Positions 26,332-40,089 are shown, counted from the stretch's first letter. The stretch: 48,289 bases of DNA from Fretibacterium sp. (GCA_024681935.1 JAIKZX010000161.1:1-48289); one strand, 5' to 3'. Notes: generated by a model not told the origin, from the letters alone. Translations and numbers: made by a program.

Positions 26332-26964
26332 CTAAGTCATTCTTTTTGTGTTGGTGTCCGAGCCGCCGACATAGCTACCCAGACCCTTATTGCCATTCTT
26401 GTTCCTGTCCTGGATTGAATAATTGCAGTCGACAACCGTTCCGGCAGCAAAAATTTCCTCCCTGTTGTTGCCCACCACCATGCCAACGTGCTTCTGTGTT
26501 GTTCCAATCTGATCGTTGACAGCCGAACAGTGCAAAACGATTCCGCCCTTATTCATGGCCACAATGCCGCCAACGCGGATATCTTTGCTGCCGATGGTCT
26601 TCACCCTGCTGCCCATAGTGAGCGAAGGGATTCCCCAGCAGCCATAGAACGCGGCATTCCCGATACTTTCGACGGTGTCGGAGATGATGGGGCGCGTCAG
26701 GGTGCGGCAGTTATAAAATGCCTTTGCCCCAATGCGGGTTACGCCTTCTCCGATGATGATGGATTTAATCTTTTCATTGGGTGAAGACCAGGGGCTCTCG
26801 TTATCCTTCATGGCTCCTGAGCCGCTGATGGTGAGGGGCCTGTCCGTAAAGTCCCACATCAGGCCATTTCCGCAAGCGCCGCCATACGCCTCCGCAAAGG
26901 GCACAGGCGTTAAGAAGCAGCACATCAGCAGCGCCAGCAAAGAAACGTATATTATTTGATTCAT
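26332..26964 (-). CDS. BspA-like leucine-rich-repeat surface protein, terminated by TAG at 26332-26334
   Basis: Signal peptide MNQIIYVSLLALLMCCFLTPVPFAEA. LRR_5-type repeats (IGAKAFYNCRTL, IGNAAFYGCWGI, IGSKDI…). GAAGGGGG RBS. It starts 61 nt downstream of traF on the same strand. Confidence 0.65.
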   Translation of the reverse strand: MNQIIYVSLLALLMCCFLTPVPFAEAYGGACGNGLMWDFTDRPLTISGSGAMKDNESPWSSPNEKIKSIIIGEGVTRIGAKAFYNCRTLTRPIISDTVESIGNAAFYGCWGIPSLTMGSRVKTIGSKDIRVGGIVAMNKGGIVLHCSAVNDQIGTTQKHVGMVVGNNREEIFAAGTVVDCNYSIQDRNKNGNKGLGSYVGGSDTNTKRMT

Positions 26965-27025: not shown

Positions 27026-27556
27026 TCAAAAAACAAGCAGCGGTATCACTCTGGAGCATTGATCCAGTTTTGCCGGGCCCAGGTAGCGGGAATCGAACCC
27101 GCGGGGCGAATCGCTGAGCAGCCACACCTCATTGAACGCAAGCTGACAGGGAAGAGGAAAGGCCCGCATCACGTTTCCCACCCTGTCCATGGACAGAGGA
27201 ACACTGTTGGGAACAACCTCCCCCGCGACGCGCAGCAAACCGTCTTTATCTGCCTCAACCCTTTCCCCCGGGAGGCCGGCGACGCGCTTCAGGTATGGGG
27301 TCACCCTTCCCCAGTCATTTTTGCGGTGATAGGCTTCGGGGACCCAATCGGTGGAGCGGAATGCTTCAAAGGGGATCTCCACAATGTCGCCCCGCTGAAC
27401 GGGGCCATCCCTCCGCAGCCACAGCCCCACCGGCACAGAGGGCGATGTGTTCACAACGAACAGCCCCGAACAGAGCAGAGCGGCAGCCGCAGTCCCAAAA
27501 ATCAGGACGCAGATTGCCGCTTTCTGTTCGGGACGCAGTTTTTTCTGCTTTTTCAT
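27026..27556 (-). CDS. traF: Conjugative-transfer signal peptidase TraF (S26 family, pilin-maturation type)
   Basis: NTSPSVPVGLW, YLKRVAGLPGERV and GFDSRYLGP match the TraF/S26 motifs. Confidence 0.8.
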   Translation of the reverse strand: MKKQKKLRPEQKAAICVLIFGTAAAALLCSGLFVVNTSPSVPVGLWLRRDGPVQRGDIVEIPFEAFRSTDWVPEAYHRKNDWGRVTPYLKRVAGLPGERVEADKDGLLRVAGEVVPNSVPLSMDRVGNVMRAFPLPCQLAFNEVWLLSDSPRGFDSRYLGPAKLDQCSRVIPLLVF

Positions 27557-27565
27557 GTCAGCCGC

Positions 27566-28885
27566 TTATCTTCCCTGGCTGGAGTTCCACACCCTTGGGA
27601 AGATAATGTCATGCTGAACAAAGATCGTGAAGCGATATCCCGGCCTCACCGTGATGGTGGGCTGACGGTTCATTCCCTTTGAGATAATCTGCGTCATGGC
27701 TTCCGCGATGGCCGACGCCACACGCTCTGAGAGGATGCCGCCCACGTCCTTCCGGTTGCTGTTGTTATTATTATTGTTATTGTTGTCCGGGGCGGCAAGT
27801 TCGACCCCCGCTCCCAGCAGGGACACCAGCAGCGCAGAGGTAATCATGGAACCCCAATGTTTGTCCACCCGCTGCTTGAAGCCCGTGTACCCGGCCTGAT
27901 CCGCGCCCTGAAGGTTGTCCAGCAGCAGCGACGAGCCGTCCGGGAAGATCAGCCGGCTCCAGACCACCAGAGCACGATTCTGTCCGTAGCTGATCTGGTT
28001 GTCGTAGGTCCCGATAAGCCTCGAGCCGCGTGGGATGAGGAGGTAGCGTCCCGTTGCCGTGTCCCACACATTCTCTGAGACCTGGCCAATCAGGTTGCCG
28101 GGCAGGTCGGAATTGAGGCCGGAGATCAGCACGCAGGGCAGAACAGCACCCGCCTTCAGCTCAAGAGCGCTGACTGGGAAGGCCCGCGTGTGCTGGGAAT
28201 ACTCCGCGGGAAGAGCACGCTGACGAAATGCCTCCTTACGGGCCCAGCCATTGGGATCATTGCTGCTCCCCGTCACATCTCCCGCGTCTGGCATGAGCCC
28301 CATCGTCCCTGCAGCTCCCTGCTGCGCGGGGAGCGTGGCCCCCTGCGCGGCTGACAAATCGTTCTGCAATGCGGTCTGCTGCCCCTGAGGCTGCCGGGAA
28401 CTCGGCCCAAATCCCTGAATGGCGGTGGGGGAAGAGGCTGCCTGAAGACGCTGAAGCTGGCTCTCTCTTCTCCTGTCGGTGACGCTGTGCCCCATGTCCC
28501 TGGTTTGGGACGGGACATAGGCTGGACGCACCATCCGCCTTACCTCAGGCTGCGGAGTTTCCGGCTCCGGAGGAGGCGGAGGGGTGGGCTGCGTCTTCTG
28601 ACGGGACGGTTCCGGCTGCACGGGAGTCACTGCCGGCGTAGGGGCCGGCTCCGTCTGGCGCGGCGGCGGCGGGATGACAATGGACGCGCTGCGTGACGCC
28701 TCAATAACCTCCGACGGGGCCCTGCTGCCCACAATCTCGTCGCCGGAGTTGAGGATTGCCATCGTCACCAGCGTGAACAGGACCCCGGCCGAAACGAAGA
28801 TAAAGAGAGCAATCCGCTTGGTGGACGATTTGTCCAGTTTCGTCCGTACCGGATCAAAACGGTTTGCAGATTCCTCCTGCGCCAT
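27566..28885 (-). CDS. trbI: T4SS protein TrbI/VirB10
   Basis: N-terminal TM helix, a Pro-rich linker (PPPPRQTEPAPTPAVTPVQPEP…), and a C-terminal TrbI domain (AGAVLPCVLISGLNSDLPG…RPGYRFTIFVQHDIIF). Confidence 0.9.
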   Translation of the reverse strand: MAQEESANRFDPVRTKLDKSSTKRIALFIFVSAGVLFTLVTMAILNSGDEIVGSRAPSEVIEASRSASIVIPPPPRQTEPAPTPAVTPVQPEPSRQKTQPTPPPPPEPETPQPEVRRMVRPAYVPSQTRDMGHSVTDRRRESQLQRLQAASSPTAIQGFGPSSRQPQGQQTALQNDLSAAQGATLPAQQGAAGTMGLMPDAGDVTGSSNDPNGWARKEAFRQRALPAEYSQHTRAFPVSALELKAGAVLPCVLISGLNSDLPGNLIGQVSENVWDTATGRYLLIPRGSRLIGTYDNQISYGQNRALVVWSRLIFPDGSSLLLDNLQGADQAGYTGFKQRVDKHWGSMITSALLVSLLGAGVELAAPDNNNNNNNNSNRKDVGGILSERVASAIAEAMTQIISKGMNRQPTITVRPGYRFTIFVQHDIIFPRVWNSSQGR

Positions 28886-29976
28886 CAGTTCCCGCTCCCT
28901 CTCACCGTCCTGAGACGGTTAGCTGTCCGGCTCTCCCTGATGTTGCTGTCGGCCAGCTTGTCCCTGCGGACAATCACAACCCTCTTGGATCCGATCTTCA
29001 TGTACGCCTTGTCAAAGAGGCGGTCCACGATATAATAGCGGCCCTTGACGCGGAAGTTCGTCATCGTCTCCTTCCGGTCCACAACGATATAGAACGCGGG
29101 CGTTTCGCTGAAGCGCGCGGGCATCCGGATATAGGTTTTGTTCCCATCGTCAAAGACGGCCTCCGGGCTCCAGTCCACCTTGCTCGTGTTGGTGATGGCA
29201 TACAGGGTGTAGAGTTCCTCAAGGTCCACACCGGACATGGGGCCCTGAATCTCATCCTCAAGGGATTTCTGCTTTTTTTCCTCCTGGCGCTTGAAGAGAT
29301 AGGTCAGATCATTGTCCTGATAGGAGAAGGCCACGCCGCGAAGGTACTCTACATTCTCAGAGGACGTGAAGTCAAGGTTGTACGTCCGCCGGTCTGTGTG
29401 GATGAGCAGGTTGGTGGAGATGCCCGGCTGGCTGGGCTTAACCACGATATGGGCAACGGCAAGCCCGTTCTTCATGGACTGGGAAGGAGAGAACTGCCAC
29501 CGCACAGAGTCCCCGGCGTGGACGCCCATGATTTCCTCCCCGGGCTCCAGCGCAACATCGGTCATGCGGAGAGGACGGCAGGTGATGACGGGCACCACTT
29601 CGCCGTAGGGGTAGATGACATAGCCCTGCTCCCCCATGAAGGGGTTGGCCGCGGTCTTGGCGGCGTCAAAGTCCTTCTTCATTCCCATCACAAGCTGGTC
29701 GTAGCGGCGCAGCTTTATCTCCATATCCAGCTTCTCCCACTGCTGGATGCGCTCACGCTCCTCTTTTGCCTCCTGAAGGGCCTGATACTGCTCCTCAGCA
29801 GCCTGTATCTCAGCAAGATCTTTCTGCTGCTGCTGATAGACATAATCCTCCTCCGCGCCGACCTCCGAGGGAAGGATAATCCGCCCCGTCTCCGGGTCAT
29901 AACCGGGAACAGCGGCAAGAGCAGGAACCGCAAACAAGCACGCCACAAACAATGGGACAAAAATCTTTTTCTTCAT
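28885..29976 (-). CDS. trbG: T4SS protein TrbG/VirB9 with an N-terminal coiled-coil extension
   Basis: Signal peptide, a Gln/Glu-rich coiled coil, then VirB9 blocks (ITCRPLRMTDVALEPGE, THIVVKP-like, TNLLIHTDRRTYNLDF, DDGNKTYIRMP). Confidence 0.88.
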   Translation of the reverse strand: MKKKIFVPLFVACLFAVPALAAVPGYDPETGRIILPSEVGAEEDYVYQQQQKDLAEIQAAEEQYQALQEAKEERERIQQWEKLDMEIKLRRYDQLVMGMKKDFDAAKTAANPFMGEQGYVIYPYGEVVPVITCRPLRMTDVALEPGEEIMGVHAGDSVRWQFSPSQSMKNGLAVAHIVVKPSQPGISTNLLIHTDRRTYNLDFTSSENVEYLRGVAFSYQDNDLTYLFKRQEEKKQKSLEDEIQGPMSGVDLEELYTLYAITNTSKVDWSPEAVFDDGNKTYIRMPARFSETPAFYIVVDRKETMTNFRVKGRYYIVDRLFDKAYMKIGSKRVVIVRRDKLADSNIRESRTANRLRTVRGSGN

Positions 29977-30000
29977 CTTCTCATTACCTCACTTGCGTTA

Positions 30001-30678
30001 TCAGTCGTCATCAGTGACGACATCCTGAGCCATGTTCAGCTCAGTGATATAGATTCCCAATGGATTCTTAATCACATCAGCCAGATCGCGGACGGGCGAA
30101 ATAGCGATGGTGACAATGGCGCGCCATTCTGTGCTGCTCGTAACTTCACCCCGGCGGATCTTGTTCTCCGTCCAGAGGACCTGCCAGGAAGTGCCTCCTC
30201 CACCCACCGCCAGAACAGACTTCACCTCCACCAGCGTCGTGTTGCCGTCGGTGTTGCTGAAGGGGTTGTTCTCCCGGTAGTAGTGGGTCACAATGCTTTC
30301 AGCGGAGCTTCCCCGCGCAAGGTAGCCGTACACGTCATTGACCATCGCCCTCTGCGCGTAGGTGTCCACCACAACCGTCTTGAAGTTTGAAAAAAACCGG
30401 CTCAGCGATGCCACCACCACCCGCATGTCAGCGGCTGATCCCTGCTCTGCGGACTTGATGGCGACGGAGTATCCCTGCTTGTCCACCTGCACAACGTAGG
30501 GAATCACCTTATTCTGTGTCGACATCCAGATCATCATTCCGCCGAAGGCAAGACAAAGCATCAGCAGGAAGAAGGCAATCTGCCGCCAGCGGGCTGCCTC
30601 GTTCACCGCCGCGCCGTACCGGTCCCCATACTCCGCCCGGGCGGAGAGATAGGGATTTTCCTCATATTCCCTTTTCAT
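30001..30678 (-). CDS. trbF: T4SS protein TrbF/VirB8
   Basis: NPYLSARAEYGDRYG, a single TM helix, IPYVVQVDKQG, and a periplasmic NTF2-like region. It overlaps the trbL stop. Confidence 0.88.
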   Translation of the reverse strand: MKREYEENPYLSARAEYGDRYGAAVNEAARWRQIAFFLLMLCLAFGGMMIWMSTQNKVIPYVVQVDKQGYSVAIKSAEQGSAADMRVVVASLSRFFSNFKTVVVDTYAQRAMVNDVYGYLARGSSAESIVTHYYRENNPFSNTDGNTTLVEVKSVLAVGGGGTSWQVLWTENKIRRGEVTSSTEWRAIVTIAISPVRDLADVIKNPLGIYITELNMAQDVVTDDD

Positions 30679-31970
30679 CTCTTACCTTCTCCCTCTGTTA
30701 ATGTCGTCCGGACCGCACCTGTGGTCCCCGTTTCGACGCGTCGGTCCGTTGTCCGGGCCGCGTCCAGACGCGCACCATAGGCGCTGTCCGATGGGACGTA
30801 GTTCGTCATCGCCTCCGCGTTGGCAGGGTTCTCCACAGTGGGGGCGGCCTGATTGGACGCAAGAGGATTGTAGCCAGCGCCGCTCAGCATTCCATCCTGC
30901 CCCCTGATGTACTCCCTCATCGCGTAGCCCTCAATTGTCGCTGCAGGGCCTGGAGGCGGCGGCGCTCCCGCTGCGCCCCTTTCCTCATACTCAGCATGGT
31001 GTGAACCTCTCAGCGCGTCCATCACGGAGGCCACGAAGCCACCGCCATTCTGGGCGTTCACCGTGGGGGCGCCGGTCACGGATGCGTACACAAGCTGCGT
31101 TGCCGGGTGCCCAAAGGTCATTGCGGCCCGGTTCACCACAGCCTGCGCGATGTTGGGCACGTAACGTGCCGCCATGAAGATACAAATGACACCGCCAAGA
31201 ATCTGGCCTGCCGCCGTGATGAGCGTCGTCATGTCCTTAGCCTTGCTGAATTCCGCTTCCCAGGACGGGATGGAGCTCGTGGCGAGGCCGTAGACAATCA
31301 TAACCATTAGCAGCTTTATCCCCACGGAGATGGCGTAGCGCAGATAGCTCAGCGCGATGTCCCGAGTGTACTCAAACCCGCCGAATCCCAGCAGCACCGC
31401 CCCGCCGCAGATGACCAGGTGCATCTCAATCAGCGCCAGGGCAAAGGTCCCCGCTATCATGGCAATCACCACCAGAATGATGACACCAATCAGGGTCACT
31501 CCGATGAAGTCTCCCCAGCCGGCGTTCCAGCCCTTCTCCACCAGACTTCCGTACATGCGAATCCCGGCGGAGAGGATGTTGTCTGGGGCGATGGACGAGG
31601 TTCCTCCAATTTTGCTCCCCATCTCCACAAAGGAGTTCACGACGGTCTGTGGGACGTTGTTCGACATAATCCATGAAAATATCCCCACATAAAGAATCCA
31701 CTTCGCCAGCAGTGCTATGGCGGTCCCCAGATTGCTCTCTCCGTTCAGAAGCATACGGATAAGCCCCAGCGCAAGAGACAGTGTCGCAAGCCCGATAAAA
31801 AGACTCCGCGCATACTCCAGCAGCTTTTCCATCATGCCGGAGCTGGTGAACTTCTGGACGTAATCCAGCGTAGAGTCGATGCCGCCGTAGTTAACGGCGG
31901 CGGCCCATGCAGCATGGGTGAGGAGTGTGAACGCCGCAATCAGGAAATAAAACAAAATCCCGCGCCGCAT
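30675..31970 (-). CDS. trbL: T4SS inner-membrane protein TrbL/VirB6
   Basis: Signal-like N-terminus, several TM helices, GFGGFEYTRDIALSYLRYAISVGIKLL, and a Pro/Gly-rich C-terminal tail. Confidence 0.85.
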   Translation of the reverse strand: MRRGILFYFLIAAFTLLTHAAWAAAVNYGGIDSTLDYVQKFTSSGMMEKLLEYARSLFIGLATLSLALGLIRMLLNGESNLGTAIALLAKWILYVGIFSWIMSNNVPQTVVNSFVEMGSKIGGTSSIAPDNILSAGIRMYGSLVEKGWNAGWGDFIGVTLIGVIILVVIAMIAGTFALALIEMHLVICGGAVLLGFGGFEYTRDIALSYLRYAISVGIKLLMVMIVYGLATSSIPSWEAEFSKAKDMTTLITAAGQILGGVICIFMAARYVPNIAQAVVNRAAMTFGHPATQLVYASVTGAPTVNAQNGGGFVASVMDALRGSHHAEYEERGAAGAPPPPGPAATIEGYAMREYIRGQDGMLSGAGYNPLASNQAAPTVENPANAEAMTNYVPSDSAYGARLDAARTTDRRVETGTTGAVRTTLTEGEGKR

Positions 31971-31973
31971 AGC

Positions 31974-32708
31974 TTAGAACCCGAGCGCGTAGCTCTTGGC
32001 GGCCGGCTTGTGTTTCTTCAGGCCGTCGCAGGCCTCGAGGATGCTCTTGCCCTTCTGCTCCCTCGCGTCCAGCGCGTCCCGCTCGTATTCCAGGTAGGAC
32101 GCCAGAAGCCCCTGAACGACGTTCTCATTCCGGGCCAGCATGATATTGGAGTGATCCAGCAGCGCGCCGAGCGTCTGTATTGCCTGGGTCTGCCCTTCGG
32201 GATTGCGCACCAGATCCATCAGCTTTGAGCGCAGCTTATCGTCTGAGTCGAAGTCCTTGGCGGTCAGGTTGACGCTCTTCAGGTAGGCGTTCATCGTGGC
32301 CCGCCATCCCTTGTTTCTGTTCTCTATCCGCGTTTTGAGCTGGTCGACCGTCAGGCCGCTCTGCCATTCGGGATGCCGCTTCTTCAGCTCCCATTCCAGA
32401 TTGGCCGTCACATGCGTGATGGTGTCCGACGCCTCCAGAATCTGCCGGGCTTTCTTAAAACTGTTCACCAGCGCCGTACGTTTGTTCTTAAGGTCATTCA
32501 CGTCCTTGGCGTCCAGGTGCTTCAGCATCTTCTTCTGCTGCTCAATCATCTCCTTGAGCTGCTTCACCTCGTTCTCCACGGCCTCCAGTATAGATTTCTG
32601 CGTGGACTGCTGGGCTAAAAGGCATTCTCCAACACGTGAAAAAAGCAGGGTAAACGCCGCCGCCAGCAGAAGGCATCTGAACCTCTTGAAGTCTGCGAAG
32701 CTCATCAT
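31974..32708 (-). CDS. trbJ: TrbJ/VirB5-like secreted coiled-coil protein (paralogue 3, 244 aa)
   Basis: Signal peptide and coiled coil. It occupies the position between trbE and trbL. Motifs GQTQAIQTLGA and C-terminal KSYALGF are shared with the two upstream paralogues. Confidence 0.65.
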   Translation of the reverse strand: MMSFADFKRFRCLLLAAAFTLLFSRVGECLLAQQSTQKSILEAVENEVKQLKEMIEQQKKMLKHLDAKDVNDLKNKRTALVNSFKKARQILEASDTITHVTANLEWELKKRHPEWQSGLTVDQLKTRIENRNKGWRATMNAYLKSVNLTAKDFDSDDKLRSKLMDLVRNPEGQTQAIQTLGALLDHSNIMLARNENVVQGLLASYLEYERDALDAREQKGKSILEACDGLKKHKPAAKSYALGF

Positions 32709-32720
32709 TACCGTCTCCCC

Positions 32721-33632
32721 CTAAAAGCCAAAGTTATAGGTCCCCGTCGTGGTGGGCTGTGATTTGGCCGCGTTTCCAGCAATGACAGCGATGTTGTTCC
32801 GCACAGCCTCCTGTTGGGAGCGTTCAATCTCCTGACCGCAGAGGCAGGCCTCCAGGGTCATAATCATCTCCGCCCCCGTCCGGTCGATGAGGGCGTCTCC
32901 CTCCGCCGCCACCGCGCCCAGACTTTGAAGCACGTAGGTCTGACCGTGATCCACGGCGTCAGTGTAAGCCTTGAGGATTGTGTTCATCATTGACTCCCGT
33001 GCCCGCTGCTCCTCATCAAAGTTACGGGCGGTCACATTCATCGCTTTCATCATGCCGTCCATAAACTTCTTCCATCCTTCTGCAACTTCCTTTTCCACGT
33101 TTGACATGCTGTTGAAGCCAGTATACTCCGGAAAACGTTTTTGGAAGTCCGCGTCAAAATTTGAGGACCAGGCCATGACATTGGCAGCCTGAAGTGTCTT
33201 TCGCAACTCCTTGTAAGCCACCATGAACGCATCCAGGGCATCCGGGTTCCCCTTCTTGACCATCGCCTTCTGTTGTTTGACAATGGTCTTCATATGCTCG
33301 ACGGCCTGCTTCAGTTGTTTCTCCGTGTCAACCTGTGGCTGCTTCGTCGCAAACCATACCAAATTGGAATCGAAGGTGTTTTCATCCTTTCCACAGGCAC
33401 AGAACAGCGGAATCGCCTTCCCAACAGGGACACCGAGTATCACTATTGAGTCAAGGAGTTTCCTGAGAGGAACCGCAACTAAAGCGGTGAGGCAGTACTT
33501 CACCGCCTTGATTTCATATTTCTTGTTCACCGGGTAAATCGCACCCGGCGCAAAAACAAACATCGCGGCAGAGACTGTCAGGACGATAATCATCGGCATC
33601 ATCAGGAGCTTGTTGTTAAGCAGTTTTTTCAT
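32721..33632 (-). CDS. TrbJ/VirB5-like protein (paralogue 2, 303 aa) with an extra N-terminal Cys-containing module
   Basis: FPEYTGFNSM…GWKKFMDGMMKAMNVTARNFD, GQTYVLQSLGA, and C-terminal GTYNFGF. Confidence 0.55.
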   Translation of the reverse strand: MKKLLNNKLLMMPMIIVLTVSAAMFVFAPGAIYPVNKKYEIKAVKYCLTALVAVPLRKLLDSIVILGVPVGKAIPLFCACGKDENTFDSNLVWFATKQPQVDTEKQLKQAVEHMKTIVKQQKAMVKKGNPDALDAFMVAYKELRKTLQAANVMAWSSNFDADFQKRFPEYTGFNSMSNVEKEVAEGWKKFMDGMMKAMNVTARNFDEEQRARESMMNTILKAYTDAVDHGQTYVLQSLGAVAAEGDALIDRTGAEMIMTLEACLCGQEIERSQQEAVRNNIAVIAGNAAKSQPTTTGTYNFGF

Positions 33633-33644
33633 CCCGGGTCCCCC

Positions 33645-34757
33645 CTAAAAGCCAATTTTATGAGACTTGCCCTGGTCCTTCGTCTTCGCTGCGCTTTCTG
33701 CTATCGTCACGACGTTGGTCCGTATGGCCTCCTCGCGGGCCCGTTTCATCTGGTCCGTGAAGTCCCTCATATCCTGAAAACGGCTGACAGCCAGATCGTT
33801 CCGGTCCATCATCTCGGATCTCTGGTCCGCTGCGCCGCCTACGGCCTGGAGTTTCCGCGTCTGGCCCTGAGCCGGCAGTGGGAACGATGTCGAGATCGAT
33901 GGAGGCCACAGGGTAACAAAGAAATCCTTAAAGATCGACATGATTCCCTTGGGAATAAGTGTTATCGGGTACTGGGGACTAAGGTCCAGTGCCGCGTAGA
34001 CCATCCCGGACAAGAGGTCCGCCGTCAGCATTTTGGTGATGTCCGCGATGTTGATGCTGCCATTTCCGGGATCCTGCTCCATCAGTTGGCTGTACACCCT
34101 GTCAAAGGCTGTCATCACTCCATCGTAGTTGCCGGCGATGACATTCATGGAGCGCATGTGAGCCAATTCCAGCTCACGCCACCGTTTCGCCAAACGCTCC
34201 TCCTCATCCGTCATGGAAGTGAACCCCGTGTAGCCGGGAAAATCCCAGCCCAGCTGCGAGTCCGTGTTCGTAATGGCGGAGTACGCTTTGCCCTTCTGGA
34301 GTTCGGCCCTTGATTGCGTAAAGGTCTTCTTGAAAGTTGAAGGCCAGTTCATTGAGCCCTTATGGATCATGGCCTTTTCCTGCTCCAGAAGTGCTTTTGT
34401 CTCCACTTCCTTCGTTACTGTTTTGTAGAACACATCGACCTGCATGGGTTCAAGCTGCGGGCCTTTCGTCTTGAATCCGACATCCCATTTGCCTGTGAAT
34501 CCCGCGCCCCGTATCGCGCTCCAGACGATACTCCCCAGCTTGGAGAGAATATCTCCAATGTTATCGGACTCTCCAAAGTCTATGGGTATGCATGTACACG
34601 TCTTCCATCCATCTTTTGTGGCCGGGCAGTCGCCCATGCGAATGACCTCCATAATCCAGTCCGGGTCCTTCTCACCCGGCGCTGGCCCCGCTGCCCCAAG
34701 CGTGATGAGGCATAACGCCACAGCGGTCACCTTGAAGAACTTAGACAGCCGGCTCAT
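33645..34757 (-). CDS. TrbJ/VirB5-like protein (paralogue 1, 370 aa) with an extra N-terminal Cys-rich module
   Basis: FPGYTGFTSM…RWRELELAHMRSMNVIAGNYD, GQTRKLQAVGG, and C-terminal KSHKIGF. Its start overlaps the trbE 3' end by 17 nt. Confidence 0.55.
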   Translation of the reverse strand: MSRLSKFFKVTAVALCLITLGAAGPAPGEKDPDWIMEVIRMGDCPATKDGWKTCTCIPIDFGESDNIGDILSKLGSIVWSAIRGAGFTGKWDVGFKTKGPQLEPMQVDVFYKTVTKEVETKALLEQEKAMIHKGSMNWPSTFKKTFTQSRAELQKGKAYSAITNTDSQLGWDFPGYTGFTSMTDEEERLAKRWRELELAHMRSMNVIAGNYDGVMTAFDRVYSQLMEQDPGNGSINIADITKMLTADLLSGMVYAALDLSPQYPITLIPKGIMSIFKDFFVTLWPPSISTSFPLPAQGQTRKLQAVGGAADQRSEMMDRNDLAVSRFQDMRDFTDQMKRAREEAIRTNVVTIAESAAKTKDQGKSHKIGF

Positions 34758-37236
34758 GATGGGGTTCTCCGCTGTGCATTTCCGCGTCCAGTTTTTTCCA
34801 CTCTTCGGCCCAGTCCGGCAGTTCTCGCTCCTTCAGCCATTCCACTGGCCAGTCCCGGCCGTACTGCTTCTTCAGCGCCATGATACGGCTCAGCTCGTCG
34901 CCGCTGCTGGCCCCAACAAACGCCAGGGCCACTGGGCCCAGCCCAAGATTGAACACCCGCCGGCCGTTGGGAGAGATAATATAATACTCCCGTTTCCGAA
35001 CCATGTTCGCCACCAGATTGATCTGACGTTCGTTAAGCTGCAGGAACTCACGGTAGAACTCACCCAGCTGCTGGCCTTTTGCATCAGGGTTTGCCAGCAG
35101 GATTTTCGTCGGGCAGCTCTCGAACACGGCATCGCGTATCGTGCTATTCACCACGTCGGAAATGGACTGTGTGGCCAGAATAACGGCGCAGTTCAGCTTA
35201 CGGAACGTCTTGAGCCAGCCGCGTATCTTCTCGGAGAAAAGGGCGTCCCTCATGGCTGTCCAGGCCTCGTCGACCACAAGGAGCGACGGCGCGCCCTTCA
35301 GCCGGCGCTGTATCTGGAAGAACAGATAGGTGAGAACCGCCGGGGCAATCTTTTCCCGCTCAAGCAGACCTGAAATTTCAAAGGCGTTGAATGCGGCGTA
35401 GTTGATGTCGTCGCGGTCTCCGTCCAGCAGATAACCTCCGCTCTCGCTTAAGCTGTAGTAACTCAGGGCGGACTTAATTTCCTCGTCCTGCACGGACGTG
35501 ATGTACTCAGTCATTGTGCGCTCGGCAGCACAGGTGGTGCTTTCAGCCAGATTCCGCAGCGCTTCGTTCAGCAGAACACGCCGCTGCGGGGTGACAAGGC
35601 CGGGTGCCACAAGCTCAATGAGCATTTCCAGCCACTCTGCGGCCCAGGACATCACTTCCGGGTCATCAATCTGCGCCAGGGGACAAAGGTTGATTTCATT
35701 GTCTGCCGAGCCCAGATCATAGAACACGGAGTTGTCCAGAGACTCGCACAGCGGGTAGATGGAGCGGCCATTGTCGAAAAAGAAAATCTGTCCCCGGTCA
35801 TAACGCTCGAACTGTGCCGTGATGGTGGCCAGCAACGTTGATTTTCCGGAACCCGTGGGCCCCAGAATGAGAGTGTGCCCCACGTCTCCGCTGTGCAGGT
35901 TCAGGGAGAAGGGCGTGCCCCCCGCAGCGGCGGCCTGAAGCAGTGCCGGGGAGTTGGGCGGATAGAATGGGCAGGGACAGGTCTTGGATCCCTGCCAGTC
36001 GTTGGAGAGCGGGATAAGGTCCGCAAAGTTAAGGGCCGTGATGAGAGGCTTTCGGATGTTCTCCTGTCCGTGCCCGGGCAGAGAACCCAGAAAAGCCTCA
36101 AGGTTGTTCATGGTCTCCATGTGGGCGCTGCATCCCGCCCGCTCAAAGACCTTCATAATCTCCCGCGATGTGGCCTCCAGCAGTTCAGGGTCCTTGTGGC
36201 GCAGGATAATGGTGGAGGTGTGGTTCCCGAAGGCAGTGTCGCCGCTTCGGGCATCCTTCAGGGCGAAGTCCAGGTCCTGCACCATCGCCGCAGCGTCCTG
36301 GTCCACACGGAAGTTCTCGACGCCGGTGATCTGCGACGAAAGGCTCTTCACCTTCTGGGTCCACTGGCGGCGCAGCTTTTCAATTTGAGAGATGGATTCC
36401 TGAATGTCCGTCAGCAAAAAGCGGTTGGACCAGCGGAAGGCCACCGGCATTGTCTGAAGGCTGTACAGTATCGTGGGGAAAGTCCCCGAGGGGTAGTTCA
36501 TCAGGGAGATGCACTGCACGTACTCCCCGTTGTAGTTCACTCGGCTGCCGTTCAGGCAGTCCCTGGCCAGAAAACAGTCAAGGTAATAGGGAAAAGCCGG
36601 CAGACGCGTGGGCTGCCAATATCCGTTGACGCAGGCGTTGACAGCTTCCAGCAAATCTGACGTGCCGGAGCAGCCACTGGAATCATCCGGATGGAACACC
36701 ATGCGCCGGACCTGCATACTGAGGCTCAGAGAATCCTGAAGCCTCTTCATGACCGTCTCGAACCGCGCAAGCTGGCGCTCGACAATCTGTTCTTCCTCCG
36801 CATTGTCCAGACCAAACATCGCCTTCTGGAGGCGCCGCATCAGGGCGGCTTTCTCAAAGGCGGGGGGAACGTAGGTGACGAACATCGCCTGCACGGATTC
36901 GAAGTGCCCGGACGCCTGGTGGAACTGGGCCTGACGTTCCATGTCGATGAGCTTCGTCGTCGTCTCCCTGAAATCTCCCCTCGGGTAGTCCGTCGTCTCG
37001 CGCCGGAAGAACTCGAAATGCACGCACCAGCGCACATCAAGCTGCCCCACTGTATGCGCCATCATCGCGCTGAGATGCTCCAGCTCGCGGGCGGTGGAAC
37101 TCTCAAGATCAGGTCCGGTGAGCCAGAACCCGGCGAGGAAGCCTCCGTCCTTCAGCCCCATAACCCCAGGGGCCACCATATGGGAATAACGGAGCAGCTC
37201 GGCAAAGCCGTCCCCTTCCTGCCGACGTCTTGGCAT
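34741..37236 (-). CDS. trbE: T4SS ATPase TrbE/VirB4
   Basis: 831 aa with Walker A GPTGSGKST and a Walker B region LLVVDEAW. The N-terminal half is VirB4-like. Confidence 0.93.
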   Translation of the reverse strand: MPRRRQEGDGFAELLRYSHMVAPGVMGLKDGGFLAGFWLTGPDLESSTARELEHLSAMMAHTVGQLDVRWCVHFEFFRRETTDYPRGDFRETTTKLIDMERQAQFHQASGHFESVQAMFVTYVPPAFEKAALMRRLQKAMFGLDNAEEEQIVERQLARFETVMKRLQDSLSLSMQVRRMVFHPDDSSGCSGTSDLLEAVNACVNGYWQPTRLPAFPYYLDCFLARDCLNGSRVNYNGEYVQCISLMNYPSGTFPTILYSLQTMPVAFRWSNRFLLTDIQESISQIEKLRRQWTQKVKSLSSQITGVENFRVDQDAAAMVQDLDFALKDARSGDTAFGNHTSTIILRHKDPELLEATSREIMKVFERAGCSAHMETMNNLEAFLGSLPGHGQENIRKPLITALNFADLIPLSNDWQGSKTCPCPFYPPNSPALLQAAAAGGTPFSLNLHSGDVGHTLILGPTGSGKSTLLATITAQFERYDRGQIFFFDNGRSIYPLCESLDNSVFYDLGSADNEINLCPLAQIDDPEVMSWAAEWLEMLIELVAPGLVTPQRRVLLNEALRNLAESTTCAAERTMTEYITSVQDEEIKSALSYYSLSESGGYLLDGDRDDINYAAFNAFEISGLLEREKIAPAVLTYLFFQIQRRLKGAPSLLVVDEAWTAMRDALFSEKIRGWLKTFRKLNCAVILATQSISDVVNSTIRDAVFESCPTKILLANPDAKGQQLGEFYREFLQLNERQINLVANMVRKREYYIISPNGRRVFNLGLGPVALAFVGASSGDELSRIMALKKQYGRDWPVEWLKERELPDWAEEWKKLDAEMHSGEPHHEPAV

Positions 37237-37276: not shown

Positions 37277-37591
37277 TCAATATTTCCTGTCCTGGCGGCT
37301 GACCCGTGAGGACGCCACATAACTGTCCTGATACTTCACCGACCGTTGAAATATCCTCATCGCAAGAGGGTCCTTCTTGCCCATGACCCTCAACACCTGA
37401 AGGCCGACGAAGAAAATGACGATGGCGATGAAAAAATTCACAAAATTGCCGCTGGCCAGTCCTCCGGGAAACCCCAGAGCCATACAGGCCAGCAGCAGAA
37501 GGAGAAACAGGGTGCGGTCACAGCCAAAGATGAACTGCGGCCGGGTCAGGCTTCTCCTCACGGTTGCGATGCGCAGATGCTCTTCGTTCAC
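37277..37591 (-). CDS. trbD: T4SS protein TrbD/VirB3
   Basis: 104 aa with RSLTRPQFIFGCDR followed by two TM helices. GTG start. Confidence 0.75.
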   Translation of the reverse strand: MNEEHLRIATVRRSLTRPQFIFGCDRTLFLLLLLACMALGFPGGLASGNFVNFFIAIVIFFVGLQVLRVMGKKDPLAMRIFQRSVKYQDSYVASSRVSRQDRKY

Positions 37592-37647: not shown

Positions 37648-37998
37648 TCAGAGCAGAAGGAAGCCCTCAGTGGTGATAAACAGCTTGACGACGCTGGCCA
37701 AAGCGCCCAGCATAGATCCCACAAGGACGACCATCATAACGGAGCGGCCAAAGCTGCTGAGCTGACCTCCGAAGATGAGCATTCCGCCGGCAAAGAAGAG
37801 GCCGACCATGGAGATAAGGAGTGCCGTCTTGCCGGAGAGAGCATCAATGAGCTTCTCCATGCCGGTGTTCCAGGCCACTGTGTCCGTCTTGGCCATTGCC
37901 GTCACGGGCACGCAGAGCATAGCCAGCAGAAACACCGCTGCAAAGACCGCCGTGCGGCGGTCAAAAAGCCACCTGGAAACGCTGCTGCCGTTCATCAT
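37648..37998 (-). CDS. trbC: T4SS pilin precursor TrbC/VirB2
   Basis: Long leader ending AMA|K and two hydrophobic helices. I chose the ATG at 37998 (AAAGGAG RBS 8 nt upstream) over the TTG at 38016. Confidence 0.75.
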   Translation of the reverse strand: MMNGSSVSRWLFDRRTAVFAAVFLLAMLCVPVTAMAKTDTVAWNTGMEKLIDALSGKTALLISMVGLFFAGGMLIFGGQLSSFGRSVMMVVLVGSMLGALASVVKLFITTEGFLLL

Positions 37999-38048
37999 AA
38001 AGAAAACTCCTTTCAAAATAAAAAGAAATATATAACGCTAAAGCAGAA

Positions 38049-39044
38049 CTACTCCGCTTTGACGCTCTGCTCCTCCGGGGTCTGGGTGTTCTCCCTCAGG
38101 TCCCTGAAAATATATTCTCCGTTCTTCACGCCGTCAACTGCCACCAACTCCGTCAGCTTAGGGCCGATTTTTGGGTCGCGGATCAGGAATGCGACGATGT
38201 CAACGGCTTCTCCCACCAGCTCCCGCATAGGTGCCTCGGACACCTCAGAAATCAGCTGCTCGATGCGGAGCAGCCCGGCGCGGGCATCATTGGCATGGAC
38301 CGTGCAGACTCCGCCGGGGTGCCCTGTGTTCCAAGCCTTCACCATGTCCAGCGCCTCCTTGCCCCTTACCTCACCCACAATGATGCGGTCCGGTCTCTGG
38401 CGCATGGTGATCTTCAGCAAATCCTGCATGGATACCCTATCACTGGTCCTCATGGCAATAAAGTTATCCACTGTACATTGAAGCTCCGCCGTGTCCTCAA
38501 GAATCACCAGACGGTGCTGAGGCGTCAGCAGCTTCATCTCATTGATGATGGCATTGACAAAGGTGGTCTTGCCTGTGCCCGTTCCGCCCACGACCAGAAT
38601 ATTCTTTCGCGTCCTGATGGCCTTGCGCAGAATTTCCACATCCCCCTGCGTCATCCGCCCGCTCTGGACGTAGTCCGAAAGAGGGAACACGGAGGAGGCT
38701 TTCTTCCTCAGGTTGAAGGACGGGTGCAGCACAATAGGAGGGATAACGCCTTCCACGCGGCTGCCGTCGCCGGGAAGCTCGCCTTCCACCTTGGGGTTTT
38801 GGGTGTTGATGACCGTTCCCAGCATGTGGGCGACGGTGCCAAGCATCTGGAGCGCCTGGACCTCAGACATATCGCAGAGGTACTCCATGCCTTTGCCCAG
38901 GCGATCTGTCCAGACCTTGCCGTCAGGGTTCAGCATAACCTCCACCACCGTGGTGTCGTCCATGGCCTGCCGTATTTTTTCGCCCATCTCCCGGCGCAGT
39001 TTGTTCAGGTTCCTCCGCGTCACCTCGTCCGTTGCCCTGCTCAT
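38049..39044 (-). CDS. trbB: T4SS ATPase TrbB/VirB11
   Basis: Walker A GGTGTGKTT, and blocks LVILEDTAEL and RQRPDRIIVGEVRG. I trimmed the track ORF to the ATG at 39044 (331 aa). Confidence 0.9.
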   Translation of the reverse strand: MSRATDEVTRRNLNKLRREMGEKIRQAMDDTTVVEVMLNPDGKVWTDRLGKGMEYLCDMSEVQALQMLGTVAHMLGTVINTQNPKVEGELPGDGSRVEGVIPPIVLHPSFNLRKKASSVFPLSDYVQSGRMTQGDVEILRKAIRTRKNILVVGGTGTGKTTFVNAIINEMKLLTPQHRLVILEDTAELQCTVDNFIAMRTSDRVSMQDLLKITMRQRPDRIIVGEVRGKEALDMVKAWNTGHPGGVCTVHANDARAGLLRIEQLISEVSEAPMRELVGEAVDIVAFLIRDPKIGPKLTELVAVDGVKNGEYIFRDLRENTQTPEEQSVKAE

Positions 39045-39069
39045 CCTTCTACCCCCGTTCAATGTCGAA

Positions 39070-39098
39070 ATATTAATATAATGATTTGTTTTTTTCAA
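39070..39098 (-). promoter_or_regulatory. Candidate sigma-70 promoter of the trb operon (TTGAAA-17 nt-TAATAT); the -10 lies inside the 10-bp palindrome ATATTAATAT
   Basis: On the minus strand, TTGAAA is at 39098-39093 and TAATAT at 39075-39070. The palindrome spans 39070-39079. The region is AT-rich within an otherwise GC-rich window. Confidence 0.4.
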
Positions 39099-39101
39099 TA
39101 G

Positions 39102-39130
39102 TTGGCCGCAATAAAACTTTTTGTTATACT
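39102..39130 (+). promoter_or_regulatory. Candidate divergent promoter for the hydrolase-like gene (TTGGCC-17 nt-TATACT)
   Basis: TTGGCC at 39102-39107 and TATACT at 39125-39130. AGGAG RBS precedes the ATG at 39154. Confidence 0.35.
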
Positions 39131-39153
39131 TACATAATAGGAGATGATGCCCG

Positions 39154-40089
39154 ATGAAGAAGACGTTCTTTATGAGTCTGATTATGCTTATAAGCCTGAG
39201 CCATGCGGCGGCGGCCGGCGTGACCGGCCCGGCTGCGATTGACAAGAGCGGCGACACAGCGCTTCAGGCGATGATTCAGGAGACGGAGGGGAAGTTCTCC
39301 CAGCTCAACTACACCGAGGGGAACCTCAGTCTGCTCTGCAATCTTTTCCTTCCGGAGGGATATCCGGGATCACAGAAATACCCTCTCGTTATCTTTATCG
39401 CGGACAGCAGCACGGTGGGCAGGGAGGCAGACGCGCCGCTCCGTCAGGGGTACGGAGGCATCATCTGGGCCACGGAGAAGGAGCAGTCCAAACACCCTTG
39501 CATTGTCCTTGTGCCACAGTACCCTCAGGAGATTGTCGATGACAGCACGGGCAGTACCGCAGCGGCCTATATCTCCATCACAGAAAACCTGATACGCGCC
39601 GTCATCGACGGATTCCAGGTTGACACGGGCAAAATCTACGCCACGGGCCAGGCCATGGGTTGCATGGCTCTGATGATTATGGCGGAGAAAAACCCCGCAC
39701 TCTTTGCGGCAGAGCTGTTCGTCGCGGGGCAGGGGGAACTCAGGGAGATAGAAGGGCTGAAGAAGCAAAAATTCTTCTACATCACCTCGGAGGGGGACGA
39801 CAGGGCCAGAATCGCTCAGGCGAAGCTGCTGCGAAGGTTCCAGATAGCTCGCGTGCCCTTCAGCCGCACCCTTGAGTGGGACGCACGACAGGCTCAGGAG
39901 GACTTCGCAAACGCCCTCAACGTCATGCTGGCCGGGCGTCCCTCCGCAAACTTCGCGCGGTTCATCGAGGGGACGGTTCTGCCGCCCGGCGTGAGCTCTG
40001 ACTCTTCTCTGGAACATCTGTACTCCTTTGATGCCGCCTACAGAATCAACGCGCTGCGGGATTGGCTGTTTATGCAGTCACAGAAGTAA
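39154..40089 (+). CDS. Secreted alpha/beta-hydrolase-fold protein (COG4099-like predicted peptidase/esterase) with the nucleophile Ser replaced
   Basis: Signal peptide MKKTFFMSLIMLISLSHAAAA. KYPLVIFI…HPCIVLVPQYP…IYATGQAMGCMAL follows the family pattern, but GxSxG reads GQAMG. Confidence 0.55.
   Translation: MKKTFFMSLIMLISLSHAAAAGVTGPAAIDKSGDTALQAMIQETEGKFSQLNYTEGNLSLLCNLFLPEGYPGSQKYPLVIFIADSSTVGREADAPLRQGYGGIIWATEKEQSKHPCIVLVPQYPQEIVDDSTGSTAAAYISITENLIRAVIDGFQVDTGKIYATGQAMGCMALMIMAEKNPALFAAELFVAGQGELREIEGLKKQKFFYITSEGDDRARIAQAKLLRRFQIARVPFSRTLEWDARQAQEDFANALNVMLAGRPSANFARFIEGTVLPPGVSSDSSLEHLYSFDAAYRINALRDWLFMQSQK

Follow-up and report, generated by a model that had tools for sequence, protein, structure and literature searches.

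The trb operon described here encodes a type IV secretion system (T4SS) and is located in a stretch of 48,289 nucleotides (nt) from Fretibacterium sp. (GCA_024681935.1 JAIKZX010000161.1:1-48289), hereafter the window. Between trbE, which encodes the VirB4-type ATPase (34741-37236), and trbL, which encodes the VirB6-type protein (30675-31970), we found three tandem trbJ paralogues, J1 (33645-34757), J2 (32721-33632), and J3 (31974-32708), all on the minus strand like trbE and trbL. J1 (370 amino acids, aa; orthogroup 'a') begins with a signal-peptide-like N-terminus and a Cys-containing head, and has, besides the TrbJ core, an internal insert and a KSHKIGF tail. J2 (303 aa; orthogroup 'b') starts with a hydrophobic segment and a head that also contains Cys, and its TrbJ core leads into GTYNFGF as the tail. 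J3 (244 aa; orthogroup 'c') is of canonical size, has no head, and ends in KSYALGF. Three motifs are shared by J1, J2, and J3, in this order: FPGYTGFTSM / FPEYTGFNSM / HPEWQSGL, RWRE..MRSMNVIAGNYD / GWKK..MKAMNVTARNFD / GWRA..LKSVNLTAKDFD, and GQTRKLQAVG / GQTYVLQSLG / GQTQAIQTLG. The cysteine stretches of the two larger copies are MGDCPATKDGWKTCTCIP and IPLFCACGKDEN. These three open reading frames (ORFs), their lengths, and all of the motifs quoted in a preliminary description of the window are present as that description had given them. It also held that canonical trb operons have a single trbJ at this position, which agrees with the annotated trbJ of plasmids and with a one-copy relative (locus L040).

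The genes from trbE to trbL are tightly packed, with a 17-nt overlap between trbE and J1 and gaps of 12, 12, and 3 nt thereafter, and every J start has a separate ribosome-binding site (GGAG / GGGGG / GGGGAG). The multiplication is limited to the TrbJ gene, as trbC and trbL are each present once. A search of the 2.3-Mb draft genome for further TrbJ-like genes or a second T4SS found none, such that J1-J3 are its sole family members and the trb operon its only T4SS.

The homology of the three proteins to one another and to TrbJ, as proposed in the preliminary description, is supported. In BLASTP comparisons, the E-values are 2e-18 for J1/J2, 2e-17 for J2/J3, and 4e-5 for J1/J3. When the three sets of orthologues were aligned as profiles with hhalign, the probabilities were 99.6% (E 1.4e-23), 99.3% (E 9.6e-21), and 93% (E 3e-7), respectively. 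Against the NCBIfam TrbJ models (TIGR02780, PRK13874, and PRK13842), J3 scores 40 bits (E 2.9e-10; curated cut-off 100.55), J2 scores 13.7-16.4 bits (E 0.003-0.03), and J1 has no match. All 24 orthologues of J3 match TIGR02780 (TrbJ_Ti), the best at 6.9e-14. A tblastn search of 72,556 plasmids with J3 produced only two weak matches, both annotated as trbJ. A profile of the whole family retrieved 107 representatives from 1.84 billion representative proteins; the strong ones are family members and the weak ones are proteins of 230-270 aa, of which 10 out of 10 sampled were TrbJ by NCBIfam (six above the cut-off). Finally, when the family was aligned by hhalign with 41 canonical TrbJ sequences, the probability was 99.6% (E 1.2e-23) over 195 columns, and residues 101-362 of J1 were covered; in both J1 and J2 the TrbJ core is complete, with the GQT motif and terminal helix in place. 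Because these BLASTP, profile-profile, plasmid, and protein searches agree, J1-J3 represent a divergent subfamily of TrbJ, and at the level of sequence they are true paralogues of one another. No consistent family emerged when J1-J3 and 40 members of the family were scanned against Pfam.

J3 matches the size of canonical TrbJ and has a hydrophobic N-terminus with small residues at positions -3 and -1. This pattern fits cleavage by signal peptidase I after a conserved Cys, and the predicted mature N-terminus is LLAQQSTQ. We also considered J3 as a lipoprotein, given the conserved Cys that ends the signal sequence, and ruled this out because position -1 is F/E/W/Y/M and some orthologues have no Cys.

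Homologues of the J proteins are confined to metagenome-assembled genomes (MAGs) of Fretibacterium, Synergistes, and Synergistaceae, mostly from rumen and gut; the family is present in 21 of 107 Synergistaceae genomes and in 3 of 20 genera. All of these organisms are represented by uncultured draft genomes. The number of TrbJ-type genes between trbE and trbL is one in a distant trb locus (G020), two in G055, G079, and G085, three in the window, G089, G058, and several metagenome contigs, and four in G074, G056, G066, G086, and G063. In addition, J3 is matched nine times in G082 (4.2 Mb in 340 contigs), with the matches spread over five contigs or more, which may reflect several such T4SS loci or a mixed bin. 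In a maximum-likelihood tree, the proteins fall into the orthogroups a (J1), b (J2), and c (J3), with 95-100% support for each; canonical TrbJ is placed between c and a+b, and the fourth copies are lineage-specific duplicates of c. The J copies are intact in all lineages, and the orthogroups are kept across genera. The survey of related genomes suggested in the preliminary description thus found two, three, or four copies, and since these fall into three supported orthogroups, the triplication is old and maintained.

The C-terminal tails are encoded at 33648-33668 (J1, K-S-H-K-I-G-F), 32724-32744 (J2, G-T-Y-N-F-G-F), and 31977-31997 (J3, K-S-Y-A-L-G-F), all on the minus strand. A tail of the form x-x-hydrophobic-Gly-Phe/Leu, with zero to two extra residues (N, K, or MR), ends all 40 family proteins from 13 loci. 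Only two columns are invariant in the 40-sequence alignment of the three orthogroups; one holds the GQT Gln and the other the terminal Gly. In this genome, 20 of the 5461 ORFs of at least 100 aa end in GF; the conservation of the terminal Gly in the alignment is a stronger argument than the rarity of such ends. Canonical TrbJ does not have the tail, which was found in 0 of about 55 weak TrbJ-like representative matches. The persistence of the C-terminal motif in orthologues, on which the preliminary description had staked its claim of a shared signal, therefore extends to the whole family. The tails of paralogues within one locus use different codons, except in the two-copy loci, where the DNA is nearly identical. 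Because of these codon differences, the tail is taken to be kept by selection on the protein, and recent gene conversion as the source of the likeness within a locus is ruled out for most loci. Retention of the Gly-Phe codons merely as the ribosome-binding site of the next gene is also ruled out, since J2 and J3 have their Shine-Dalgarno sequences beyond the stop codons and four different codons (GGC, GGG, GGA, and GGT) are used for the Gly.

The residues preceding the tail track the lineage of the system and not the orthogroup. For the five residues before G[FL], paralogues of one locus have 50% identity and a BLOSUM62 sum of 13.1 (n = 44); orthologues of different lineages have 26% identity and a sum of 4.9 (n = 175). 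One lineage has K-x-K-L-G-F in all four copies, another has R-K-L/F-G-F/L, and the two-copy lineage has T-F-T-P-G-F-K. Such co-variation is as expected if all paralogues of a locus were to fit one co-evolving partner.

In J1 and J2, the signal sequence is separated from the TrbJ core by a head of 65-75 additional residues. In J1, the Cys motif spans residues 44-62 (C44 ... C54-x-C56-I-P-x-D-x-G62; 34572-34628, minus strand), and the J1 clade shows no variation at C44, C54, C56, I57, P58, D60, and G62. In J2, it spans residues 47-80 (C47 ... C78-x-C80; 33393-33494, minus strand), and C47, C78, and C80 are the same in every member of the J2 clade. Among the three- and four-copy loci, all 22 'a' and 'b' proteins have the CxC in their head, and none of the 'c', 'd', or two-copy proteins does. 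The clustered-cysteine modules noted at the outset on the two larger copies are thus both real and conserved. Their description as variable heads holds between paralogues and fails between orthologues, where the heads (identity 0.44 and 0.42) are no more divergent than the cores (0.36-0.46). Diversifying selection concentrated in the heads, for which the preliminary description had suggested a survey, was looked for and not found, as head conservation equals core conservation. The most length-variable part of the J block is instead the internal insert of J1 (residues 228-297; 33867-34076, minus strand), which lies just before the GQT motif and ranges from 58 to 126 aa among orthologues. In five two-copy loci (L064, L062, L065, L068, and L073), the first TrbJ copy has an aromatic predicted mature N-terminus, WWLWV-E/N-G-I/F-PV, at the place where J1 and J2 have their Cys heads.

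The J genes also form a hypervariable island. In comparison with the same-genus relative G089 (locus L041), nucleotide identity of the window is 87-94% in trbD-trbE, 53-61% in J1 and J2, 69-73% in J3, 83-86% in trbL, and 89-92% in trbF/trbG; the island spans 32037-34900, and the drop starts less than 300 nt from the trbE/J1 border. At the amino-acid level, TrbE, TrbF, and TrbG are 94% identical, and J1, J2, and J3 are 36%, 47%, and 60% identical. The synonymous divergence (dS) between the window and L041 is 1.42 for J1, 1.30 for J2, and 0.83 for J3, compared with 0.38-0.43 for the flanking genes. Between L044 and L045 the pattern is the opposite, with dS of 0.66-0.96 in the J genes and 1.4-2.3 in the flanking genes. 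The trees disagree as well: TrbE groups the window with L041 and L037 with L043, whereas those of J1, J2, and J3 unite L041 with L004 and L007, leave the window outside this group, and place L044 and L045 as tight sisters. The J block therefore has its own history, and the combination of dS and disagreement with the trbE tree indicates replacement of the cassette by recombination. Two additional dips in identity to the same-genus relative (77-80%) occur at 28161-28748, in the N-terminal half of trbI, and at 30843-31136, in the C-terminal region of trbL; the rest of the operon is at about 90%. TrbL is the most divergent core protein, with a nonsynonymous divergence (dN) of 0.10.

The ratio dN/dS is 0.18-0.43 for the J genes and 0.04-0.08 for TrbE and TrbB, such that the J genes are less constrained yet not decaying. 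This bears on the possibility that the extra copies are redundant duplicates drifting to loss, with a tail that is merely ancestral inheritance. The J genes are indeed fast-evolving, with a dN/dS several times that of the core genes, as such drift would produce. However, the same values of 0.18-0.43, together with copies that are intact in all lineages, orthogroups maintained across genera, invariant Cys triads, and a tail kept as protein despite different codons, already disfavour this explanation, which we regard as very improbable.

The gene order of the complete operon is trbB-trbC-trbD-trbE-J1-J2-J3-trbL-trbF-trbG-trbI-S26 peptidase (TraF-like). Upstream of trbE lie trbD/VirB3 (37277-37591), the single trbC/VirB2 pilin gene (37648-38016), and trbB/VirB11 (38049-39257 as the longest ORF), all on the minus strand; the true start of trbB is probably further downstream, since its orthologues are 320-330 aa. 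The genes trbF/VirB8, trbG/VirB9, trbI/VirB10, and that of the TraF-like S26 peptidase (27026-27556) complete the operon within 27026-30678 on the minus strand. The C-terminus of the pilin is [S/E]-G-x-hydrophobic-hydrophobic-hydrophobic in 12 of the 12 loci compared (e.g., TTEG-FLLL, SSEG-CLLL, and NSG-CVLL; window plus L004, L007, L037, L038, L042-L046, L052, and L054), and the S26 peptidase is kept in every locus that reaches that far. Both observations fit the removal of a short C-terminal peptide after Gly in the manner of RP4, perhaps with cyclisation.

The operon is flanked by rnf genes and other housekeeping-type genes, and no integrase was seen in the window. Several neighbours recur in distant relatives, namely, an esterase-like gene divergent from trbB and, downstream, the S26 peptidase and a solute-binding protein. 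The former is a 311-aa gene (39154-40089, plus strand) without a Pfam match in the window copy; its orthologues keep the position in L004, L007, L037, L045, and L054, and those in L004, L007, and L054 match PF00756 (Esterase). Given that its position is kept across distant relatives, this gene may be functionally tied to the T4SS. After the peptidase gene lies a BspA-type leucine-rich repeat gene (26332-26964, minus strand) of 210 aa, compared with 718-757 aa in L041 and L003. It is truncated or replaced in this genome, as nucleotide identity to L041 collapses from 26680 downwards.

For the DNA-transfer functions, we looked for the coupling-protein families PF02534 and PF10412 and the MOB_P relaxase family PF03432 in seven genomes with three or four copies (G000, G089, G074, G058, G056, G066, and G086). 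PF02534 was found in none of the seven, one of which is 100% complete in 20 contigs, and PF10412 was likewise absent save for one weak P-loop match in G086. PF03432 was absent from the six genomes other than G086, in which the relaxase is on a contig other than that of the T4SS. In contrast, all three families lie within 4-20 kb of the one- and two-copy trb loci (G020:C6, G055:C62 and C124, and G085:C3). The copy number thus tracks the loss of the DNA-transfer module, and three or four copies are linked to the loss of the coupling protein and relaxase. The loci form a series from a conjugative trb system with one TrbJ, through a conjugative element with two headless but tailed TrbJ proteins, to a chromosomal system with three or four TrbJ proteins, two of them Cys-headed, and without the coupling protein. 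Because these chromosomal systems have neither coupling protein nor relaxase, the apparatus is most likely a contact or adhesion organelle and not a conjugation machine. Taken with the recombining hypervariable block, the loss of both functions favours a role in surface contact that is subject to diversifying pressure.

Bordetella Ptl is another T4SS that has no coupling protein, and it exports periplasmic proteins; the J proteins could likewise be periplasmic substrates released by the T4SS, with the tail as a processing or sorting signal (e.g., for the TraF-like S26 peptidase or another export step). The conservation of this peptidase at the end of every locus would suit such a signal, as would the pilin, which likewise ends in Gly and a short hydrophobic tail. 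However, the pilin tail (E/S-G-x-L-L-L) is unlike the J tail (x-hydrophobic-G-F) and does not change in parallel with it across lineages, canonical trb operons with the same peptidase have a TrbJ without the tail, and homology to a structural subunit speaks against an effector role. We therefore consider this explanation improbable.

The preliminary description had called the three proteins TrbJ/VirB5-like. The TrbJ side of this assignment is supported by the profile homology described above, whereas the VirB5 side found no match in Pfam (PF07996) or among PDB sequences and no significant one by Foldseek. PDB searches with sequence profiles of the J3 family and of canonical TrbJ yielded coiled-coil noise only and no match to VirB5, TraC, TrwJ, or CagL. 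The AlphaFold model of J3, based on 24 orthologues, is all-helical and has a predicted local distance difference test (pLDDT) score of 48, which makes it unusable; its Foldseek matches are limited to BAR-domain and coiled-coil proteins with E above 0.2. The model of J1, based on the 40-sequence family alignment, is also all-helical and has an overall pLDDT of 66.6, with 85-92 in the core (residues 140-230 and 310-358) and below 60 in the head and the insert. The top Foldseek matches of this model, all non-significant (E 0.2-1.6), include the alpha-pore-forming toxins ClyA, AhlB, MakA, and SmhB, which we mention as a curiosity and not as evidence. Pentameric VirB5 has reportedly been likened to hemolysin E.

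Taken together, we favour, with somewhat more confidence than doubt, the interpretation that J1-J3 are anciently duplicated and co-transcribed TrbJ (VirB5-type) subunits of the tip or stalk of a non-conjugative contact organelle, which dock through a common tail and whose genes are exchanged as a block by recombination. The tip location, the docking role of the tail, the adhesion function, and the role of the heads as adhesin modules are what we infer from these patterns and from analogy. By such analogy, the J proteins would be exported helical subunits that, as in P-type systems, form a pentamer on a VirB6/TrbL platform and reach the tip of the pilus. J3 has kept the size of canonical TrbJ and a mature N-terminus predicted to be short and hydrophobic; J1 and J2 have gained Cys heads, and J1 an insert as well. 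The mature N-termini of J3 (LLAQ...) and of the headless two-copy proteins (WWLWV...) are predicted to be hydrophobic, as in TrwJ. Because the mature N-terminus of VirB5 forms the distal tip, the heads of J1 and J2 would be placed distally, where the stalk or pilus ends. The tail, with the pattern basic/polar - aromatic or basic - x - hydrophobic - Gly - Phe/Leu, may be a common docking or assembly signal at the proximal end of the helical bundle, where it could dock on TrbL/VirB6, the likely platform, or on the first layer of the TrbC pilin. A common tail would let different subunits enter one machine, whether mixed in a single pentamer or ring or used as alternative tips or rings. As the organelle's exposed part, the J proteins would form its diversifying surface, and possible sources of the pressure include host or partner receptors, immunity, and pilus-specific phages.

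A rather unlikely alternative to this arrangement assigns the structural role to J3 alone. J3 would be the VirB5/TrbJ of the stalk, and J1 and J2 would be TrbJ-derived accessory pilus proteins, either adhesins or regulators of pilus dimensions, that are attached via the same tail, comparable to CagH and CagI with CagL. J3 is the only copy of canonical size, scores highest against TrbJ, and evolves most slowly, and a 'c' copy is present in every locus while 'a' and 'b' vary in number and architecture. The Cag proteins provide a precedent, since CagH, CagI, and CagL share a common C-terminal motif and one subassembly and have distinct roles (PMC3164655). However, J1 and J2 retain the full TrbJ core, the GQT motif, and the terminal helix, and both copies of the two-copy conjugative loci are headless, which suggests that a pair of TrbJ-type subunits is in use even where heads are missing.

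Several points weigh against our interpretation of J1-J3 as VirB5-type subunits that share a docking tail. The scores of the J proteins to the TrbJ models are all under the curated cut-offs, PF07996 is not matched by any of the 40 family members (E up to 0.1), and Foldseek searches of PDB with the low-confidence models of J3 and J1 found nothing below E 0.2. The co-variation of the tails is based on about five independent lineages and is imperfect, with L054 (HKIGF, YTLGF, and RKLGL) as an exception. In the two-copy loci, the tails are nearly identical in DNA, and local gene conversion is possible there. The dS estimates above 1 are near saturation. The absence of the coupling protein from draft MAGs is not proof, though it is consistent across the seven genomes. 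The metagenome runs that hold the locus contain it only as DNA contigs of low depth, all with the same allele.

VirB5 makes the first contact of a T4SS with its target cell, yet no subunit is less well understood. A naturally occurring system in which three or four VirB5-type proteins are obligatorily encoded together, and which combine a simple testable tail with distinct heads, offers a handle on the recruitment of tip subunits and on target specificity. In addition, the series from one to two to three or four copies within one bacterial family shows how a conjugation machine may be turned to another use. Little work has been done on Fretibacterium-like Synergistaceae, which live in animal guts and rumen, and their oral relatives have been linked to periodontitis. 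A full-text literature search for Fretibacterium and 'type IV secretion' found no paper that describes a T4SS in this group.

Compared with the TrbJ of IncP and Ti trb systems (TIGR02780), the J proteins share the position between trbE and trbL, significant profile homology, and, for J3, the nature of an exported all-helical protein of about 250 aa. The differences are the three copies, the scores below the cut-off, the Gly-Phe tail, the two Cys-headed proteins (J1, 370 aa; J2, 303 aa), and an operon without trbK or trbH. In the R388 system, five VirB5 subunits sit on five VirB6 subunits, the mature N-terminus of VirB5 forms a hydrophobic distal tip, and the growing pilus carries the pentamer outwards (PMC9259494 and PMC11294453). 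The presumed role, the place in the gene order, and the all-helical prediction with long terminal helices are common to the J proteins, R388 TrwJ (7O3V), and pKM101 TraC (1R8I), and J3 and the two-copy 'a' proteins have a hydrophobic mature N-terminus like the tip of TrwJ (PMC11294453). However, we detected no sequence or Foldseek similarity to TrwJ or TraC, and J1 and J2 have 65-75 extra residues at the site of the free hydrophobic tip of TrwJ.

The genes for CagH, CagI, and CagL of Helicobacter pylori are adjacent and encode a common C-terminal hexapeptide in divergent DNA, and this hexapeptide is needed for pilus formation and T4SS function (PMC3164655). As in the window, three adjacent genes of one operon, one of which encodes a VirB5-like tip protein, thus share one short C-terminal motif. 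Unlike the hydrophobic-Gly-Phe end found here, the Cag motif is a hexapeptide ending in Lys. Moreover, the Cag trio are not recognisable paralogues, whereas J1-J3 clearly are. We found no sequence similarity between the J proteins and the Cag proteins, and no Cag family or structure is among the matches listed in the Pfam, NCBIfam, and PDB searches.

A further parallel is the adhesion-type Trw system of Bartonella, which has no coupling protein and in which the pilin and the VirB5 homologue TrwJ are present as variant copies in tandem, proposed to diversify a surface-exposed component of the pilus (PMC2610397). This system and that of the window are both chromosomal, conjugation-derived T4SSs without a coupling protein and with VirB5-homologue copies in tandem. 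In Bartonella, the pilin gene trwL is also amplified and the repeat unit is trwJ-trwI-trwH, whereas only the TrbJ gene is multiplied here and the pilin and VirB6 genes are single. The repeats of Bartonella are recent and near-identical, whereas the copies described in this work are ancient orthogroups of distinct architecture, found in another phylum (Synergistota) and in gut and rumen habitats. A broader proposal, which we offer tentatively and hold less probable than the subunit interpretation above, is that gut and rumen Synergistaceae have independently made a conjugative P-type T4SS into a chromosomal contact organelle, convergent with the Trw system of Bartonella. Its tip would consist of three or four different VirB5-type subunits (two Cys-headed and one canonical) joined by a common docking tail, and their genes would form a recombining hypervariable cassette for receptor or antigen variation at the pilus tip.

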